Source of the DNA: an uncultured bacterium
GTDB lineage: Bacteria > Patescibacteriota > Patescibacteriia > Magasanikbacterales > GWA2-37-8
Length of the DNA stretch: 48,989 bases
NCBI GenBank assembly: GCA_937903605.1
Contig: CALCZC010000013.1
Coordinates: forward strand, 1-48,989
Reading direction: 5' to 3'
Made by a program: the position numbers and the translations under genes. The notes beneath the pieces were generated by a model. The model was not told where the DNA came from and did not search any database. It was given only the letters and a program-made list of their open reading frames with translations. Shown here piece after piece: positions 30,630 through 45,934 of the stretch; within the stretch, counting starts at the first letter, position 1; every line of letters begins with the position of its first letter.

Positions 30630-31319
30630 ATGAAAATAGGCGGATTGCAAAAATTCTCAATGATTGACTATCCGGATAAAATCGCTTGCATAGTTTTCAC
30701 CCAAGGTTGCAATTTTCGCTGTCCATATTGTCACAATCCGGAATTGGTAAAACCGGAAATGTTTGGGGAAAGTTTAAACGAAGAAGAATTTTTTGACTTT
30801 TTGAAAGAAAGAATGGGGAAACTGGATGCAGTGTCTATCACCGGCGGGGAACCGACACTCCAATACGATTTGATAGAGTTTATCAAAAAAATCCGCGATT
30901 TGGGATTTCTCATCAAACTGGATACCAATGGCACCAATCCGGAAATGCTCAAAGAAATCATTGATCAAAAGCTCGTAAATTATCTGGCCATGGATATCAA
31001 AGCGCCCTTCTCTAAATACGAAGAGATTACCAGAATGCCGGTAAATATAGAAAAGATCAAACAAAGCGTGGAAATGATAAAAAATTCGGGGATTGATTAT
31101 GAATTTCGCACGACTTTGGTGAAAAAACTTTTGTCTCCGGAAGATATAGAACAAATAGGCAGAGATATTGCCGGCGCGAAACAATACTTTTTGCAAAAAT
31201 TTGTTTCCACCAAAACGGTTGATGAAAAAGTTTTACACGAAGAAACCTATAGTGAAGAAGAAATGGAAAATCTAAAAGAACGATTAAAACCTTTTGTCGC
31301 AAAGTGCCTGTCGCGATAA
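30630..31319 (+). CDS. nrdG: Anaerobic RNR-activating radical SAM protein
   Basis: FTQGCNFRCPYCHNP, ITGGEPT and KLDTNG; directly after nrdD. Confidence 0.92.
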   Translation: MKIGGLQKFSMIDYPDKIACIVFTQGCNFRCPYCHNPELVKPEMFGESLNEEEFFDFLKERMGKLDAVSITGGEPTLQYDLIEFIKKIRDLGFLIKLDTNGTNPEMLKEIIDQKLVNYLAMDIKAPFSKYEEITRMPVNIEKIKQSVEMIKNSGIDYEFRTTLVKKLLSPEDIEQIGRDIAGAKQYFLQKFVSTKTVDEKVLHEETYSEEEMENLKERLKPFVAKCLSR

Positions 31320-31331
31320 AAGGGGAAAACT

Positions 31332-31366
31332 AAAAAAGCTCCAACATGCCTGTCTGGAGCTTTTTT
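31332..31366 (+). terminator. Terminator, copy 1 of a 35-bp direct repeat
   Basis: AAAAAAGCTCCAACATGCCTGTCTGGAGCTTTTTT, 30/35 identical to 32307-32341. Confidence 0.75.
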
Positions 31367-31448
31367 GTTTGGAAAAATCATTGTGTTTTTTGGTCGGAAA
31401 AGGTAAAATATGTTTATATTATTTTTACAAAATAAAAAATATAAACAT

Positions 31449-32273
31449 ATGGAGGAACCACAAAATCAGCAAATAGCTTTATTTAAAGGTAAAGAAATAA
31501 GAAAAATTCTGCACAAAAATGAATGGTGGTTTTCTATTCTTGATGTGGTAGCTGTGTTGGCGGAAACCCCGTCGCCTAAAACATATTGGTCAAAAATGAA
31601 AGATCGGGATAAAGAAATATCTCAACCGTTCCCATTTTGGGAACAGTTAAAATTAGTTGCAGAAGATGGTAAAATGCGCGAAACAGACTGTGCTGACACC
31701 GAAGGTATTTTTCGTATTATCCAATCTATTCCTAGTCCCAAAGCCGAGCCTTTTAAGCGTTGGCTGGCCAAAGTTGGTTATGAACGTGTGCAAGAAATTG
31801 AAAATCCAGAATTGGCAACCAAAAGGACTAGAATGCTCTATAAACTCAAAGGTTATAGCGAAGATTGGATAGAAAAAAGAATGCGCGGAATCGCTATCCG
31901 CGAAGAATTGACCGATGAATGGGAAAAACGTGGAGCTAAAGAGAAAAAAGATTATGAAATTTTGACCGCGGAAATATCTAAAGCAACTTTCGGAATAACA
32001 CCGAGTCAATACAAAAAACTCAAAGGTCTTAAACGAGAAAATTTGCGTGATCACATGGATGATTTCGAACTTATCTTTAATATGCTCGGTGAGAGGTCTA
32101 CAACTGAAATTCATCGCAATGAAAATTCAATTGGTGTAAAAAAATTAAAAAATGATGCGTATAGAGGTGGAAAAGTTGCCGGCAATGCCAGAAAAGAATT
32201 GGAAAAAGAATTAGGGCGATCAATCACAACAAAAAATAATTTTTTATCAAAAGCTAAAAGAAAGCGTATATAA
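31449..32273 (+). CDS. Bro-N domain protein (phage antirepressor-like)
   Basis: EIRKILHKNEWWFSILDVVAVL, RIIQSIPSPKAEPFKRWLA and LRDHM motifs. Start moved to ATG 31449. Confidence 0.88.
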   Translation: MEEPQNQQIALFKGKEIRKILHKNEWWFSILDVVAVLAETPSPKTYWSKMKDRDKEISQPFPFWEQLKLVAEDGKMRETDCADTEGIFRIIQSIPSPKAEPFKRWLAKVGYERVQEIENPELATKRTRMLYKLKGYSEDWIEKRMRGIAIREELTDEWEKRGAKEKKDYEILTAEISKATFGITPSQYKKLKGLKRENLRDHMDDFELIFNMLGERSTTEIHRNENSIGVKKLKNDAYRGGKVAGNARKELEKELGRSITTKNNFLSKAKRKRI

Positions 32274-32306
32274 TTTTGTAGTGTATTTATCTTGATTAAT
32301 AAAATT

Positions 32307-32341
32307 AAAAAAGTTCCAGTATGCTTGTCTGGGGCTTTTTT
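32307..32341 (+). terminator. Terminator, copy 2 of a 35-bp direct repeat
   Basis: AAAAAAGTTCCAGTATGCTTGTCTGGGGCTTTTTT. Confidence 0.7.
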
Positions 32342-32441
32342 AGTTTGAATAGTGAATTTTGACATTTTTAAAGTTTTTATATATACTATAAAGTCAATTA
32401 ATTTTGATACGATCTTTAACAATTTAGATAAGGAGATTAAT

Positions 32442-32990
32442 ATGGGAACAAACGAGAAAAAAGCAAATCCTGTTTTTAATGATTTAAGTAAATCAGGAAA
32501 CCAAAAGGCTGATTGCTTACACCAAAGCTTGAAGAGGTATGGTGTAAATTTTGCTACCGGCGTGCCTTGTGGAGTGTTGCGACACGTTATCAATAACTTG
32601 ATAAATGACAAGAGTATTATTCACGTAGTATCAAATCGTGAATCAGAAGCAGTTGGAATTGCAGCGGGTGCTTATCTATCAGGAAAATGTCCGGTAGTTT
32701 ACATGCAAAATTCTGGACTTTTTGCAGCTTCAAACGATATTGCTTCTCTTCTTGTTCCTTATAAGATCCCAATTTTATTTGTGGTTACTTATAGGGGCTG
32801 CGAAGGTGAAGATGCTGTCCAACATCTTGTAACTGGAAAAGCAACCGAAAAATTACTTACATCATTTGATGTTGATTTCTTTGTATATGAAAAACAGGAC
32901 ATTAATGATTTGGTTGATATGATTTTCAACCGTATGAATGAAACCAACTTACCAAACTTTTTACTTTTAAAAAGGGGGTGGAACAAATGA
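32442..32990 (+). CDS. ThDP-dependent decarboxylase alpha subunit (sulfopyruvate ComD / phosphonopyruvate decarboxylase N-half like)
   Basis: GVPCG, RESEAVGIAAGAYLSG and YMQNSG; AGGAG SD before ATG 32442. Confidence 0.85.
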   Translation: MGTNEKKANPVFNDLSKSGNQKADCLHQSLKRYGVNFATGVPCGVLRHVINNLINDKSIIHVVSNRESEAVGIAAGAYLSGKCPVVYMQNSGLFAASNDIASLLVPYKIPILFVVTYRGCEGEDAVQHLVTGKATEKLLTSFDVDFFVYEKQDINDLVDMIFNRMNETNLPNFLLLKRGWNK

Positions 32991-33556
32991 AAAGAAAAGA
33001 TGCAATTAAAACAATTTTTTCAACGATTGGTGTTTCGGATGTCACTATCTCTACAACAGGACTTATTTCGAGAGAAGTATTTTCAAAATTCGATTCTCCT
33101 AGAAATATCTATGTTCCAGGTTCAATGGGCCTGGTGTCGTCAATTGGATTGTCACTTGCTTTGTGTAATAGTAATAGAAGAGTGTTTGTAATAGACGGTG
33201 ATGCCAGTCTATTAATGAATTTTGGAAGTCTTGTAACCATAGGAGCATATAAACCGAATAATTTAATCCATATTGTTTTGGATAATAGTGCTTATGGTTC
33301 ATGCAGTGAAGAAAAATCTTTGTCATCTTCAGTAAATTTTGCTAAAATAGCTAAAGATGTAGGATTTAACACTGTTTTTGAGGTTCAAGATAAAAATGGG
33401 TTAAAAAACGCAATTGTGAGCGATTCTCCTTGCCCGATTTTTGTTCATGTGAAAATTGAGCTGGGAGGAAGACGGGATTTTTCTCGTCCACTGGACTTGC
33501 CAGGAATCAAAGAAAGATTTATGTCATTTTTACTAACTAACAATATAAGGAGATAA
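32987..33556 (+). CDS. ThDP-dependent decarboxylase beta subunit (ComE / Ppd C-half like)
   Basis: GSMGLVSSIGL and IDGDASLLMN...LDNSAYGS ThDP motif; ATGA overlap with the alpha subunit. Confidence 0.85.
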   Translation: MKRKDAIKTIFSTIGVSDVTISTTGLISREVFSKFDSPRNIYVPGSMGLVSSIGLSLALCNSNRRVFVIDGDASLLMNFGSLVTIGAYKPNNLIHIVLDNSAYGSCSEEKSLSSSVNFAKIAKDVGFNTVFEVQDKNGLKNAIVSDSPCPIFVHVKIELGGRRDFSRPLDLPGIKERFMSFLLTNNIRR

Positions 33557-33559
33557 AAT

Positions 33560-34384
33560 ATGATATTTCAAGGCGAAAAAATGTTTGATGCATCTTTTGA
33601 TATCTTTGCGAATAATTATGATGATGTTCGCCCGGGTTACCCGAAAGAGATGTATGATGATATTGCAAAAATCTGCAATCTCAGTAAATCTTCCAGTGTA
33701 ATTGAAATTGGAGCTGGCAGCGGAATTGCCACTGTTGAGTTGGCTAAAACAGGATGTAAGATTGTCGGTATTGAGCCGGGATCTAATTTGGTGGTGATAG
33801 CCAAAGAAAAAACTAAAGATTATCCAAACGTGGAAATTGTCGAGGCTATGTTTGAAGATTATGAATCTTCGAACAAGTTTGATTGCTTGATCGCTTTGAC
33901 TTCCTTTCATTGGATCAGCGAACAAACGAAATACAAAAAGGCCTATGACTTATTGAATCGCAATGGACATTTTGTCATCGTTTGGAACAGCTTTTTTCAA
34001 TCAACAGGAGAAGCGACAAAAGAAGTTAACTCCCTGTATAATGAAATGTTGTCTGATATATATCCCGAACAGAAAAATGATGTTAATTTGGGTGTATTTA
34101 ACAAATTGAATGGGCGTGAGCTGGAAATTGTCGGAAGTGATATGTTTTATCTTTACTTTCTGCGTAAATATGTCACGGTTTACAACTACGACAAAGAAAC
34201 GTATCCGATGCTTTTGAATACTTTTCCAAAAATTATTAAGATTAAAAAGGAAAGACGGGAAAAGTTTCTCAAAAGAGTGGAAAAGATTGTTGAAAAACAT
34301 GGCACACTTTCTGTTCCTGTATTAACTACATTGCTTATAACCAAGAAAAAGGACGTATTTTTTGATGAAATCAACAAGGTTTAA
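33560..34384 (+). CDS. Class I SAM-dependent methyltransferase
   Basis: YDDVRPGYP, VIEIGAGSG, GIEPG and SFHWI motifs. Confidence 0.88.
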   Translation: MIFQGEKMFDASFDIFANNYDDVRPGYPKEMYDDIAKICNLSKSSSVIEIGAGSGIATVELAKTGCKIVGIEPGSNLVVIAKEKTKDYPNVEIVEAMFEDYESSNKFDCLIALTSFHWISEQTKYKKAYDLLNRNGHFVIVWNSFFQSTGEATKEVNSLYNEMLSDIYPEQKNDVNLGVFNKLNGRELEIVGSDMFYLYFLRKYVTVYNYDKETYPMLLNTFPKIIKIKKERREKFLKRVEKIVEKHGTLSVPVLTTLLITKKKDVFFDEINKV

Positions 34385-34398
34385 AAAGGAGGTTTAGA

Positions 34399-35493
34399 AT
34401 GATAACATTGAAAAAGATATATTCTCTGGCTGAGATTTATAATGTGCCAGTGGAGGATGTTTTGTTTGTCGCATTGAATATTTACGGAGCTGCTTTTAAA
34501 TGTGATTTTAACCGCATGAGAATGGGGATACATACTATCGAACAAGAAGTATTCAAATATTCCCACTCCCTTGGCATCAAAGACTTCTATTTTGCATTGC
34601 CGATTAATGAAAGCAGCCCTTTCTCTGTTACTGACGGAAAATTGCTTTTTGATAATCAGGAAATAGCTGATGCAATTGAACCGTCCGAAGATTTTTGCGA
34701 TTCAAACTATCCAAGAAGAAACGGTACGGTTTTGAACATTAACCCAAATTCTCGCACATCTTGTCGGGGGTGCAAGTTTTGCTACACAGGCTATCAAGTG
34801 CCAAGAGATATGAAACGCATGGCTTGTGCAACGGACATAAAGGAATTTTTTGATAATTGGATGGCCGAGAAAAAATTAGTCGATCTTTCAAATCTTGTGC
34901 AGGTAGCCGTGGTTACTGGTTGTTATAATAGTAATAGCGAGCTAAGCTCATTCTTGATTTTGTTGAGGGAGATATTGAACCGATATCAATTCAAAGGCGA
35001 AATTTTCTATCTTGGCTCGCAGATTACCAATAAAGAAACACTGGAAAAGCTAAAGTCAATTCAACCTTTCTGTTACTGTGTATCTCTTGAGTGCTTTGAA
35101 AATAGAAATACACTTCTTCGTGACAAGAAAAGCAGCATGACGGTTGAATCCGCTTTTAAATTGATGGACTTTGCTAAATCCATTGATCACCGAGTAAATT
35201 TTTCCTATGTGCTTGGATTGGAGTCGCTGTTTACGGTTGAAAAATACTTTTCATTGGCAAAAAGGTTTATAAACAGCTTTCCAATTGTAAATACAATTCA
35301 GCTTCACAAATATCACAGTGCCTCGCTTCTTACGCCTGAGGCGGTAAATATCGAATATTTTTTTGAGGCCAGAAAACTGCTTGAAAGAATATTTATTGAT
35401 ACTGATATGAGGCCGAAGGAATGGGAAAACTATCGTAGTTTATGGTTTTTGAAATTTGCCGAAGAAAAACTTACAGGCATCAGAACGCCATAA
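34399..35493 (+). CDS. Radical SAM-like Fe-S protein with CX2CX2C motif
   Basis: SCRGCKFCY, VAVVTG, SLECF and FSYVLGLE; AGGAGG SD. Confidence 0.6.
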   Translation: MITLKKIYSLAEIYNVPVEDVLFVALNIYGAAFKCDFNRMRMGIHTIEQEVFKYSHSLGIKDFYFALPINESSPFSVTDGKLLFDNQEIADAIEPSEDFCDSNYPRRNGTVLNINPNSRTSCRGCKFCYTGYQVPRDMKRMACATDIKEFFDNWMAEKKLVDLSNLVQVAVVTGCYNSNSELSSFLILLREILNRYQFKGEIFYLGSQITNKETLEKLKSIQPFCYCVSLECFENRNTLLRDKKSSMTVESAFKLMDFAKSIDHRVNFSYVLGLESLFTVEKYFSLAKRFINSFPIVNTIQLHKYHSASLLTPEAVNIEYFFEARKLLERIFIDTDMRPKEWENYRSLWFLKFAEEKLTGIRTP

Positions 35494-35513
35494 TAATTAT
35501 TAATTTTAACAGT

Positions 35514-35542
35514 GAGTCGTGTATTTTAGCACGACTCTTTTT
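35514..35542 (+). terminator. Terminator between the radical SAM gene and the integrase
   Basis: GAGTCGTG-tattttag-CACGACTC followed by a T-run. Confidence 0.75.
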
Positions 35543-35555
35543 TATTTACTCCTTA

Positions 35556-36368
35556 TCAAAGAGGGCTTTTGATATTTTTGATACTGGGATTAGTCACGTG
35601 AGTATATATTTGCGTAGTGCGGATATTGGCGTGGCCCAAAAGCTCTTGTACATAACGTACATCAACGCCGTTTTCTAGTAGGTGAGTGGCGAAACTATGG
35701 CGTAAACTATGAAAGCTAGCGGGTTTTTTGATCCCTGATTTTTTCAATGCTTCTTCAAATATGGCTTGCGCGGTTCTGACGGTGAGTTTGCCACCACGAT
35801 TACTTTCAAAAAGATAATCCTCGCCGTTTCGTTCACCTGTCAAAAAATATAAATCATTTTTGATATTTTCTGGAATAACGGTTATCCTGTCTTTTTTGCC
35901 TTTGCCTTGCCTTACTTTCAAAATTAGTTCATCAAGTAAAACGTCTTTTATTTTCAAATCAACAACTTCACTCACTCGCAATCCCGCTCCATAAGCTAGA
36001 GATAATAGTAACAAATGTTTTTTATTGGTAACTTGAGATAAGATATTTTTGATTTCTTCTTTACTCAAAACTTCCGGCAAAGAATTGTTTCTTTTGGCAA
36101 ATTTTAGATCAACTCTTTGGTTATTTTTCAAAACATCATGATAGAAAAATTTTATAGCGTGTAAATACAAATTAATTGTTTGAGGAGAAAAATGCTTGTC
36201 TTGTTTTGAAAGTAAAAATTGTCTGATTTTGTCTATACTCAAAACCTCAAAATCAACTCTCAAAAAGATAAAATAATCTCTTAAACAGCCAAGATAGGAG
36301 TCAATGGTCCGAGGGCTATAATTACGTAGTCGTAACTCAATCCGAGTTTTGTCTAAAAATTCTTGCAT
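35556..36368 (-). CDS. IntI-like tyrosine recombinase (short form, no I2 insertion)
   Basis: LRLRNYSPRTIDSY N-domain; catalytic GLR, GKGKKDR, HSLRH, LLGH and TQIY; C-terminal SPL as in IntI; divergent from a cassette array. Confidence 0.92.
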   Translation of the reverse strand: MQEFLDKTRIELRLRNYSPRTIDSYLGCLRDYFIFLRVDFEVLSIDKIRQFLLSKQDKHFSPQTINLYLHAIKFFYHDVLKNNQRVDLKFAKRNNSLPEVLSKEEIKNILSQVTNKKHLLLLSLAYGAGLRVSEVVDLKIKDVLLDELILKVRQGKGKKDRITVIPENIKNDLYFLTGERNGEDYLFESNRGGKLTVRTAQAIFEEALKKSGIKKPASFHSLRHSFATHLLENGVDVRYVQELLGHANIRTTQIYTHVTNPSIKNIKSPL

Positions 36369-36473
36369 ATTTTGATAAAAAAGAGTAAAATTTGTATATA
36401 TTTATATACAACAACATTATACATAAAATTCGTAAAATATACAAATTTAGGTATATTTCACGTAGTTTTATTC

Positions 36474-36493
36474 GTATAACAACCAGTTGCGCA
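36474..36493 (+). other. Candidate attI site
   Basis: GTATAAC-AACCA-G|TT, an inverted AAC/GTT core with a 5-bp spacer, 105 bp upstream of the integrase start. The first mini-cassette begins at the G|TT. Confidence 0.6.
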
Positions 36494-36639
36494 AAATTTC
36501 GCTTCGCTCATTTTGCGCAATGTGCGGCGCATAACTGCGCCAGCTGTGCTTCGCGAAGCTTCGCACAACTGTCGCATATCCAAAATGGCGATCTGATGAC
36601 AAAGTCATCATCTCACCACTTCGGATTATGCGCCGCACA
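36487..36639 (+). mobile_element. 153-bp gene-less mini-cassette type A, copy 1
   Basis: TTGCGCAAAAT...GCCGCACA, identical to copies 2-4; inserted at G|TT. Confidence 0.9.
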
Positions 36640-36826
36640 TTATACGCAATTCAAAAAATATTTTTCTTTTAATAAGGAATTTTGACAGGCTTTTTTAAAG
36701 GGGAATAAATTTGTTTTTTTATTTATTAGAAAGGGGTATAAGGTGTTTTCTCCGCTTCGCTACGAAAACGATTTATTTATAAGGGGAAAACGAATACAAT
36801 ACAAATACCTATCACGAAAATAATTT

Positions 36827-43541: not shown

Positions 43542-43640
43542 GTATAACACAGCGTATGCGGTTCGGGGCTCGGCTCGCCCCTCACCCATATTTTTGCTCC
43601 CGTTGGTCGCAAAAACATCGCATACGCTGGAACGTTGCGC
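43542..43640 (+). other. attC site 1
   Basis: R'' GTATAAC, L'' CAGCGTATGCG, L' CGCATACGCTG, then GAAC-G|TT. CGTATAAC complements the cassette start G+TTATACG (36640). Confidence 0.85.
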
Positions 43641-43787
43641 AAAATTTCGCTTCGCTCATTTTGCGCAATGTGCGGCGCATAACTGCGCCAGCTGTGCTTC
43701 GCGAAGCTTCGCACAACTGTCGCATATCCAAAATGGCGATCTGATGACAAAGTCATCATCTCACCACTTCGGATTATGCGCCGCACA
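43635..43787 (+). mobile_element. 153-bp mini-cassette type A, copy 2
   Basis: Identical to 36487-36639. Confidence 0.9.
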
Positions 43788-43811
43788 TTATATGAAATAC
43801 ATCACAAAATT

Positions 43812-44620: not shown

Positions 44621-44777
44621 ATATAACACCTGCCTATGCGGTTACAGAATTTTTCCAAATCCAATTAACGCCAAGGAATAAAAAATTCTTCCACCCAAAT
44701 TTTTATCTTTCTTTTCTTAAGAGAATTAACATCAAGGAAGAAAGATAAAAACTTCGCATCATCCGGATACGTTGCGC
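44621..44777 (+). other. attC site 2
   Basis: CATATAAC complements the cassette start G+TTATATG (43788); CTATGCG...CGCAT arms (imperfect, possibly hybrid); GGATAC-G|TT. Confidence 0.75.
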
Positions 44778-44924
44778 AAAATTTCGCTTCGCTCATTTTG
44801 CGCAATGTGCGGCGCATAACTGCGCCAGCTGTGCTTCGCGAAGCTTCGCACAACTGTCGCATATCCAAAATGGCGATCTGATGACAAAGTCATCATCTCA
44901 CCACTTCGGATTATGCGCCGCACA
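44772..44924 (+). mobile_element. 153-bp mini-cassette type A, copy 3
   Basis: Identical to copy 1. Confidence 0.9.
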
Positions 44925-44943
44925 TTATATAAAATTTTATACT

Positions 44944-45313: not shown

Positions 45314-45726
45314 ATATAACAGCGTATATACGGCTCACAAGCGAAATAAAATTATTTTTTCTTTTATGCGTGGAGATAACAACATTTTACGGTTAGACGG
45401 CGCAAATATGGATATTGATTTGACTTCCGGGGATAAAACTTCGTGGAAGCAAACAGAATGTCCATGGAATGAGGCCGAGGGTACAAATGAACACAAATGC
45501 GCCGTCAAAAATGTTTCTATTTGCAAATATTTCTGCGGAATTGAGTATTTAGACAATGTTTTGTGCTGTTATCCCAACAAAAATATGCTGGTGGATAACA
45601 AACAGAAAAAATAATTATATTTTTAATCGCTTGTTCGCCCAAATTCGGTTTCCGTTTTGTGTTGGCGCTCCGCGCAATTTTAACACAAAACTACAACCGA
45701 ACTTCGTATATACGCGTACATTGCGC
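45314..45726 (+). other. attC site 3, with a ~400-bp variable region containing an ORF
   Basis: TTATATAAC complements the cassette start G+TTATATAA (44925); GCGTATATACG (45322-45332) pairs with CGTATATACGC (45705-45715); then GTAC-A|TT. Confidence 0.75.
45366..45614 (+). CDS. Small Cys-rich hypothetical protein inside attC3
   Basis: 82-aa ATG ORF with 6 Cys; protein-like composition in otherwise structured DNA. Confidence 0.55.
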   Translation: MRGDNNILRLDGANMDIDLTSGDKTSWKQTECPWNEAEGTNEHKCAVKNVSICKYFCGIEYLDNVLCCYPNKNMLVDNKQKK

Positions 45727-45873
45727 AAAATTTCGCTTCGCTCATTTTGCGCAATGTGCGGCGCATAACTGCGCCAGCTGTGCTTCGCGAAGCTTCGCAC
45801 AACTGTCGCATATCCAAAATGGCGATCTGATGACAAAGTCATCATCTCACCACTTCGGATTATGCGCCGCACA
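45721..45873 (+). mobile_element. 153-bp mini-cassette type A, copy 4
   Basis: Identical to copy 1. Confidence 0.9.
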
Positions 45874-45934
45874 TTAAGTGAAATTGAATTTTGACAACGA
45901 TTGTAAAATACAAGTTCATTTATAAAATAACCTT

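Follow-up and report, generated by a model that had tools for sequence, protein, structure and literature searches.

The 48,989-nucleotide stretch of DNA analysed here (the window), a contig from an uncultured bacterium of the Magasanikbacterales, carries four tightly coupled open reading frames at positions 32442-35493, all on the forward strand. The encoded proteins are predicted to comprise the two halves of a thiamine diphosphate (ThDP)-dependent decarboxylase-type enzyme, an S-adenosylmethionine (SAM)-dependent methyltransferase, and a non-canonical relative of the radical-SAM enzymes. We consider it probable that the four genes constitute a self-contained, horizontally mobile operon for a three-enzyme small-molecule pathway. 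An earlier note on this DNA had proposed an orphan biosynthetic operon of similar composition. The operon itself proved to be real, with four forward-strand reading frames where the note had placed them. The description as an orphan did not hold, because cassettes of this kind turn up at about 25 further loci and have relatives on plasmids of cultured bacteria.

The operon is preceded by a sigma-70-type promoter (TTGACA-17-TATACT, 32359-32387, forward strand), which has 11/12 matches and is the best in the region 31300-36800. The ATG of gene 2 overlaps the stop codon of gene 1 as ATGA, and each gene has its own Shine-Dalgarno (SD) site, namely AAGGAG before gene 1, GGGGGTGG before gene 2, AAGGAG before gene 3, and AGGAGG before gene 4. 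Of the other genes delimited in the window, 34 in number, a single one shows AGGAG in the 25 nt upstream of the start codon (Fisher p ~0.002, a value that rests on our own start calls). The strong SD sites are thus unlike those of the core genes, as had been noted before, and this difference fits a foreign origin. The GC content of the cassette region is not distinctive. The transcription unit is closed by an intrinsic terminator (35514-35547, forward strand) consisting of a 9-bp stem (35514-35537, 5 G-C pairs) with a 6-nt loop, followed by TTTTTTATTT. The end of the stem lies 19 nt from the stop codon of a convergent integrase gene, which agrees with the position assigned earlier.

Gene 1 (32442-32990, forward strand) encodes a ComD/RhiE-like protein of 182 residues that matches PF02776 (TPP_enzyme_N) with an E value of 1.9e-8. 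Gene 2 (32987-33556, forward strand) encodes a ComE/RhiF-like protein of 189 residues, or of 192 residues if the alternative GTG start at 32978 is used, which matches PF02775 (TPP_enzyme_C) with an E value of 1.2e-13. Both Pfam scores exceed their cut-offs. The best solved relatives are RhiE for the first protein (9iz3_A, E 7.5e-21) and RhiF for the second (9iz3_B, E 3.8e-24). In the catalytic Glu region of the PYR domain, E67 and E69 are invariant in 18 alpha orthologues, and the ThDP/Mg motif G74-D75...N103 is invariant in 19 beta subunits. Judged by these matches, genes 1 and 2 are predicted to encode the PYR (alpha) and PP (beta) domains of a ThDP-dependent decarboxylase-type enzyme related to ComDE, phosphonopyruvate decarboxylase (Ppd), and RhiEF.

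RhiEF from the rhizocticin cluster of Bacillus subtilis (PDB 9iz3/9iz4), described as a split phosphonopyruvate decarboxylase (PMC12141560), shares with genes 1 and 2 the two-gene alpha/beta organisation without a TH3 domain. Measured against the Ppd equivalog model TIGR03297, the family that also comprises the single-chain enzymes Fom2 and AepY, the alpha and beta subunits scored 113.8 and 166.1 bits, and even the simple sum of 280 remains below the cut-off of 312.5. Furthermore, the partners of the window genes are a radical-SAM protein and a methyltransferase instead of phosphonate genes. ComDE of coenzyme M biosynthesis is split in the same manner, and the similarity to it is comparable, with 116.2 bits for alpha on TIGR03845 (sulfopyruvate decarboxylase alpha, cut-off 147.95) and 147.9 bits for beta on TIGR03846 (sulfopyruvate decarboxylase beta, cut-off 221.5), so that both scores again lie below the equivalog cut-offs. 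The lack of PepM and ComA, originally observed for the window, extends to the whole 1.13-Mb, 99.83%-complete genome. A profile search for phosphoenolpyruvate (PEP) mutase (TIGR02320) found none in it and was positive in 7 of 14 control genomes, and a search for ComA (PF02679; ComB and ComC were not searched) was likewise negative in this genome and positive in 3 of the 14 controls. We also know of no use for coenzyme M in a fermentative bacterium of the candidate phyla radiation (CPR) such as this host. We conclude that the operon does not represent a standard phosphonate or coenzyme M route.

Gene 4 (34399-35493, forward strand) encodes a protein of 364 residues that matched no model in Pfam (E value 0.01, PF04055 included), NCBIfam, PHROG, or PADLOC. 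Neither single-sequence nor profile searches of the PDB sequences retrieved anything. The AlphaFold2 model, built on 16 homologues, reached a predicted local distance difference test score (pLDDT) of 85 and a predicted template modelling score (pTM) of 0.86. With this model as query, all Foldseek matches down to rank 31 were radical-SAM enzymes, with E values down to 3e-6 and with LipA/LIAS, MgmA, SuiB, BioB, and HemN at the top. VIA-align gave Z scores of 12-15 over 210-240 residues to LipA, MqnE, viperin, HydG, RlmN, and PylB. The part common to the model and LipA (4u0o/4u0p), MqnE (6xig), viperin (5vsl), and HydG (4rtb) is the partial (beta/alpha)6 TIM-barrel core. As in canonical radical-SAM enzymes (PF04055), a cysteine loop directly follows beta-1, an aromatic residue precedes the last cysteine, a glycine-rich stretch follows beta-2, and a GxxE-like motif is located near G273.

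The cysteine loop of gene 4 reads C122-R-G-C125-K-F-C128 and therefore corresponds to CX2CX2C instead of the canonical CX3CX2C. All three cysteines are invariant in 17 family members with identities as low as 20%, none of which has a cysteine at position 121. Also invariant in these members are D98, T173, G200, R236, K244, G273, P295, R325, and W349. The protein differs from canonical radical-SAM enzymes further in its N-terminal alpha/beta domain of ~100 residues, in a conserved C-terminal WENYRSLW tail, and in showing no conserved auxiliary-cluster cysteines across the 17 members. An auxiliary Fe-S cluster or sulfur insertion had been considered because LipA and BioB head the Foldseek list and C100, C175, and C227 are invariant in close relatives; this was rejected as a family feature, since the three cysteines are lost in distant members. 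Some homologues carry a precomputed PF04055 hit, which was weak in the one that was graded. The family is small: a search of 1.84 billion representatives gave 316 clusters at E <= 0.001. On the basis of the model, gene 4 is best described as a non-canonical radical-SAM relative and putative Fe-S enzyme. The previous designation as a radical-SAM gene is therefore supported with respect to the predicted fold but not with respect to the canonical motif and the PF04055 match, both of which are absent.

Gene 3 (33560-34384, forward strand) encodes a class I SAM-dependent methyltransferase of 274 residues (Methyltransf_25/11, E 4e-12). Its best full-length solved relative is the O-methyltransferase HvrF (9e72, E 8.4e-12). 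Models of the trans-aconitate methyltransferase Tam also matched, with weaker scores, and weak matches of the Erm/KsgA type were obtained as well. HvrF is annotated as an O-methyltransferase of the pantaphos cluster, in which its place in the pathway is not clear, and Tam esterifies the carboxylate of a small acid. The similarity of gene 3 to both is low. At one patescibacterial locus (L014, 4577-5998), the beta subunit and the methyltransferase share a single frame of 474 residues, which reflects either a natural fusion or an error in the assembly.

We fetched 36 genome loci and several metagenome contigs with gene 4 homologues and tabulated their neighbours by BLAST. The pairing counts refer to 50 fetched loci, several of which are near-duplicates. 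The order alpha-beta-methyltransferase-radical SAM was found in ~25 loci, mostly from Patescibacteria, and the homologues are co-localised in most of the 50, in contrast to the lack of co-localisation that, according to the earlier note, would have spoken against its proposal. The radical-SAM gene lies within ~6 kb of a ThDP enzyme gene, usually as its immediate neighbour, in 45 of the loci. Two types of ThDP partner occur, namely split ComDE-like pairs and phosphoketolase-like proteins. The latter type, with 668-751 residues, is found, for example, at L005-7, L018/19, L025, L027, L038/39, L042 (Treponema lecithinolyticum), L051, and L055/56. L040, L050, and L053 show a third arrangement, in which the radical-SAM gene is followed by alpha, beta, and one to three TehB/UbiE-type methyltransferase genes. 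Five loci lack a ThDP partner. Two of these are on contigs that are too short for a decision (L026 and L052), and the other three are from DPANN archaea and have sufficient flanks (L028, L034, and L036). A 758-residue neighbour at L034 and a pair of 178 and 181 residues at L028 were inspected as candidates for hidden ThDP genes and are not ThDP enzymes.

Known relatives of the phosphoketolase-like partners cleave ketose phosphates. Four cassette-linked XFP-like proteins scored 157-513 bits, far below the NCBIfam phosphoketolase cut-offs of 777-1518, and are accordingly regarded as divergent paralogues. A maximum-likelihood tree of 40 radical-SAM sequences requires at least 3-4 changes of the partner type on well-supported branches. 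Thus, two unrelated ThDP scaffolds are interchangeable beside a constant radical-SAM enzyme. The ratio of nonsynonymous to synonymous substitution rates (dN/dS), determined against the two closest cassettes (L008 and L009), was 0.03-0.12 for all four window genes and 0.03-0.05 for gene 4. All four genes are therefore under strong purifying selection. The conserved core of the family consists of the CX2CX2C radical-SAM protein and a ThDP enzyme, usually accompanied by a methyltransferase.

The distribution and the boundaries of the cassette showed that it is mobile. Of 401 sampled genomes of the phylum, the window genome included, no more than two had a gene 4 match, and searches of a same-genus genome (G373) and five other genomes of the family gave no match. 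Synteny with G373 runs through RuvB, NrdD, and NrdG and ends at 31416, beyond which the two genomes differ. In blastn comparisons, L008 (85%) and L009 (84%) are homologous to the window from 32359 and 32355 to 35548 and 35551, respectively. The conserved block (32355-35551, forward strand) thus extends exactly from the promoter to the terminator and comprises the four genes, and the promoter is kept at the left edge of the homology block in L008. The surroundings differ in each case. The L008 cassette is flanked by SecA on one side and by S30AE/MurB on the other, and the L009 cassette lies upstream of an unannotated gene of 534 codons that is followed by sugar epimerase-like, HIT, and S-adenosylhomocysteine hydrolase genes. 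The cassette proteins of L008 are 80-95% identical to those of the window, compared with 59% for the SecA proteins of the two genomes. The operon is horizontally mobile and foreign to the host lineage, in agreement with the horizontal acquisition suggested earlier.

A tblastn search of PLSDB identified 39 plasmids with a gene 4 homologue. Thirty of them are Clostridium perfringens plasmids of 70-77 kb; the remaining matches are on plasmids of Streptomyces, Nocardia, and Mycobacterium. In C. perfringens, the homologue is full-length with 33% identity and belongs to a six-gene cluster (for example, NZ_CP075989.1, 1-11821) that encodes a HAD hydrolase, an adenylation-domain protein, the radical-SAM homologue, a phosphoketolase-family protein, a PHP protein, and a methyltransferase. 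Compared with the window operon, it thus has a phosphoketolase-type ThDP enzyme and contains in addition the adenylation-domain protein and the HAD hydrolase. It may correspond to the uncharacterised "cluster of putative metabolic genes" reported for pCPF5603-family plasmids (PMC4810218, a review), although the membership of the present plasmids in that family is unconfirmed. The clusters on a Streptomyces goshikiensis plasmid and on Nocardia farcinica pNF1 include an enolase-superfamily protein, a HAD hydrolase, and a methyltransferase. The former adds a creatininase-family protein, a PhyH dioxygenase, and a Sua5-like protein, and the latter adds two further radical-SAM proteins, with nucleoside genes nearby. 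These larger plasmid clusters resemble natural-product clusters, and their minimal core seems to be represented by the CPR cassette. Phage records encode no gene 4 homologue.

In the pathway that we propose, the ThDP enzyme would act on a 2-oxo acid that resembles pyruvate and is substituted at C3, and its decarboxylation would give a hydroxyalkyl-ThDP carbanion or an aldehyde, an acyl-anion unit of two or three carbons. In other lineages, a ketose phosphate might be converted to a similar unit by the phosphoketolase-like partners. The radical-SAM enzyme would then make or rearrange a C-C or C-heteroatom bond on this unit or on its acceptor, and the methyltransferase may cap the product, perhaps at a carboxylate. 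A 2-oxo acid as the substrate had already been suggested in the earlier note; this part is weakened by the replacement of the decarboxylase by a phosphoketolase-like ThDP enzyme in other lineages. The cofactors required are in use in the host. The genome encodes MetK and eight or nine further radical-SAM enzymes, together with a transketolase-like protein and one more protein of the TPP_enzyme_C type, which indicates that SAM, Fe-S, and ThDP chemistry takes place in the cell. The MetK match (435 bits, above the cut-off; contig C25, 175844-176959) contains one TAG and one TAA codon.

Several observations weigh against a small-molecule pathway of this kind. The structural matches of gene 4 are generic for the superfamily, so that no subfamily stands out and no particular reaction is indicated. 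We know of no characterised enzyme in this radical-SAM family, and a literature search on the gene combination, on CX2CX2C in radical-SAM enzymes, and on links to GrpB or phosphoketolase found nothing relevant. We therefore infer the chemistry of the cassette from its context, and this applies to the small-molecule nature of the product as well as to the product itself, the substrate, and the order of the steps. No transporter, regulator, or resistance gene is present within the CPR cassette. A thiamine pyrophosphokinase was not found in the genome, and ThDP must consequently be imported or made in another way. The methyltransferase varies with the type of cassette among unrelated class I families (Tam/HvrF-like, TehB/UbiE-like in one to three copies, or others), which suggests that methylation may be a tailoring rather than a core step. 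Finally, the pairing of the radical-SAM and ThDP enzymes is not absolute: the three DPANN loci contain the radical-SAM gene, in two cases with a methyltransferase, and no adjacent ThDP gene.

Alternatively, the three enzymes might modify a macromolecule or serve in defence, with the ThDP enzyme supplying a carbon unit for the modification of a nucleotide, tRNA, rRNA, protein, or glycan, or for a viperin-like antiviral nucleotide analogue. The variable region around the operon contains a candidate defence gene of PADLOC (PDC-S13), a restriction-modification operon, and a HerA-like ATPase, and restriction genes or a superinfection-immunity gene occur near some other copies of the cassette. Viperins are among the structural matches of gene 4 (Z 13-14), GrpB nucleotidyltransferase-fold domains are fused or adjacent to some members of the radical-SAM family, and the nucleoside genes near the pNF1 cluster as well as the weak Erm/KsgA-type matches of gene 3 point in the same direction. 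We nevertheless consider this explanation unlikely. The three core proteins have no specific PADLOC or PHROG match, the methyltransferase matching only the methyltransferase part of mad2, and the phage records are devoid of homologues. Many copies of the cassette reside amid housekeeping genes, and such a rare, patchy, and mobile gene set is unlike a modifier of the translation apparatus. Moreover, the larger clusters, with their adenylation domain, dioxygenase, and enolase-superfamily enzyme, are of a natural-product type.

A second alternative is a truncated phosphonate or sulfonate pathway. In this case, genes 1 and 2 would encode a true phosphonopyruvate or sulfopyruvate decarboxylase with a substrate provided by the host cell or by genes located elsewhere, and the radical-SAM protein and the methyltransferase would tailor phosphono- or sulfoacetaldehyde, comparable to the Fom3-type methylation in fosfomycin biosynthesis. 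The closest families and the sole close solved structure are indeed Ppd/RhiEF and ComDE, HvrF belongs to a phosphonate cluster, and CPR bacteria live on hosts that could supply precursors. Yet neither subunit reaches the curated cut-off of any of the three equivalog models, and PEP mutase and ComA are missing from a 99.8%-complete genome in searches with positive controls. The phosphoketolase-like replacement in sister cassettes, furthermore, has no place in such routes. Fom3 and PhpK contain a B12-binding domain, and none was detected in the radical-SAM protein of the window. Taken together, these results make a truncated pathway of this type very unlikely.

It is even harder to believe that the ThDP enzyme is a dedicated low-potential electron source, which would reduce the radical-SAM [4Fe-4S] cluster by oxidation of hydroxyalkyl-ThDP in the manner of pyruvate:ferredoxin oxidoreductase (PFOR): ThDP enamines do reduce Fe-S clusters in PFOR, and the interchange of unrelated ThDP types would be easier to explain if only the ThDP-bound enamine mattered, but at least eight other radical-SAM enzymes of the genome work without such a partner, the near-constant methyltransferase is left unexplained, phosphoketolase chemistry is not oxidative, and no evidence of a complex was obtained.

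The radical-SAM and ThDP enzymes could conceivably act as one coupled catalyst, although we regard this as a long shot. A SAM-derived radical, either the 5'-deoxyadenosyl or a substrate radical, would be captured by the ThDP-bound enamine (the Breslow intermediate) and yield a ketone, which would be a natural counterpart of radical acylation in N-heterocyclic-carbene chemistry. Such a catalyst would explain why ThDP scaffolds are interchangeable beside a constant radical-SAM partner. A complex prediction of the radical-SAM protein with alpha and beta, based on alignments, gave a score of 0.00 and bears neither way on a physical association.

The operon is followed by a gene for a tyrosine recombinase (35556-36368, reverse strand; PF00589, E 1e-42) that resembles XerA and integron integrases and is convergent with the operon. 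It scored 225 bits on NF040815 (cut-off 220) and 208 bits on TIGR02249 (cut-off 265). Its position beside the operon is probably incidental, as the closest cassettes, with 84-85% nucleotide identity, reside amid housekeeping genes without an integrase. On the 5' side of the integrase gene, four direct repeats of 185 nt (36466-36650, 43614-43798, 44751-44935, and 45700-45884; 90-100% identical, each with an internal 25-nt inverted repeat) separate gene cassettes, which encode RadC-Dam/AlwI/N4-N6 methylase/HerA-like proteins, an amidohydrolase, and two small open reading frames. This repeat array has an integron-like layout in a CPR genome, and the integrase belongs to it and not to the operon. 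The operon itself was considered as an integron gene cassette and rejected as such, since no 185-nt repeat flanks 32355-35551, which is located on the 3' side of the integrase gene.

Directly upstream of the operon, the variable region starts with a gene (31410-32273, forward strand) for a Bro-N domain protein (PF02498), which corresponds to the PADLOC candidate PDC-S13 (PDLC04920, E 2.5e-115) and to phrog_15286 (E 1.5e-91). Similar stretches of ~45 nt at ~31375-31420 and 36350-36395 flank the Bro-N gene, the cassette, and the integrase gene. In the version of the same-genus genome G373 (L044, 1506-1551), the left half is like the left copy and the right half like the right copy. These stretches may represent an att site or just a promoter that they have in common. 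As both copies read as TTGNNT-17-TAAAAT promoters before variable genes, we claim neither an att site nor an integrase-borne element bounded by them. No right boundary is assigned to the variable region; on that side, only a repeated tRNA-tail element matches G373, in the opposite orientation. Several starts of window genes outside the cassette are located directly behind TAAAAT-like boxes, which may mean leaderless transcripts. In addition, the exact 11-mer GAATTTTGACA occurs three times in the window (32354-32364, 36677-36687, and 45886-45896), each time at the start of a mobile unit, namely the cassette and the units right behind two of the 185-nt repeats. When one mismatch is tolerated, nine matches are present compared to 3.7 expected. 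The 11-mer is probably a shared -35/UP promoter element.

What is new here is the pairing of members of known superfamilies, including two unrelated ThDP architectures, of which no description was found in the literature searched. The pairing defines a radical-SAM subfamily with a cluster motif that is one residue shorter and with a ThDP enzyme as an almost constant companion. CPR bacteria and DPANN archaea are thought to be almost without secondary metabolism. A rare, mobile, and strongly conserved enzyme trio nevertheless moves among these lineages, and it is kin to clusters on plasmids of Clostridium, Streptomyces, and Nocardia. The cultured carriers make the question of its function testable. 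If a small molecule is indeed made, it would be a candidate for the interaction of the episymbiont with its host or with competitors.

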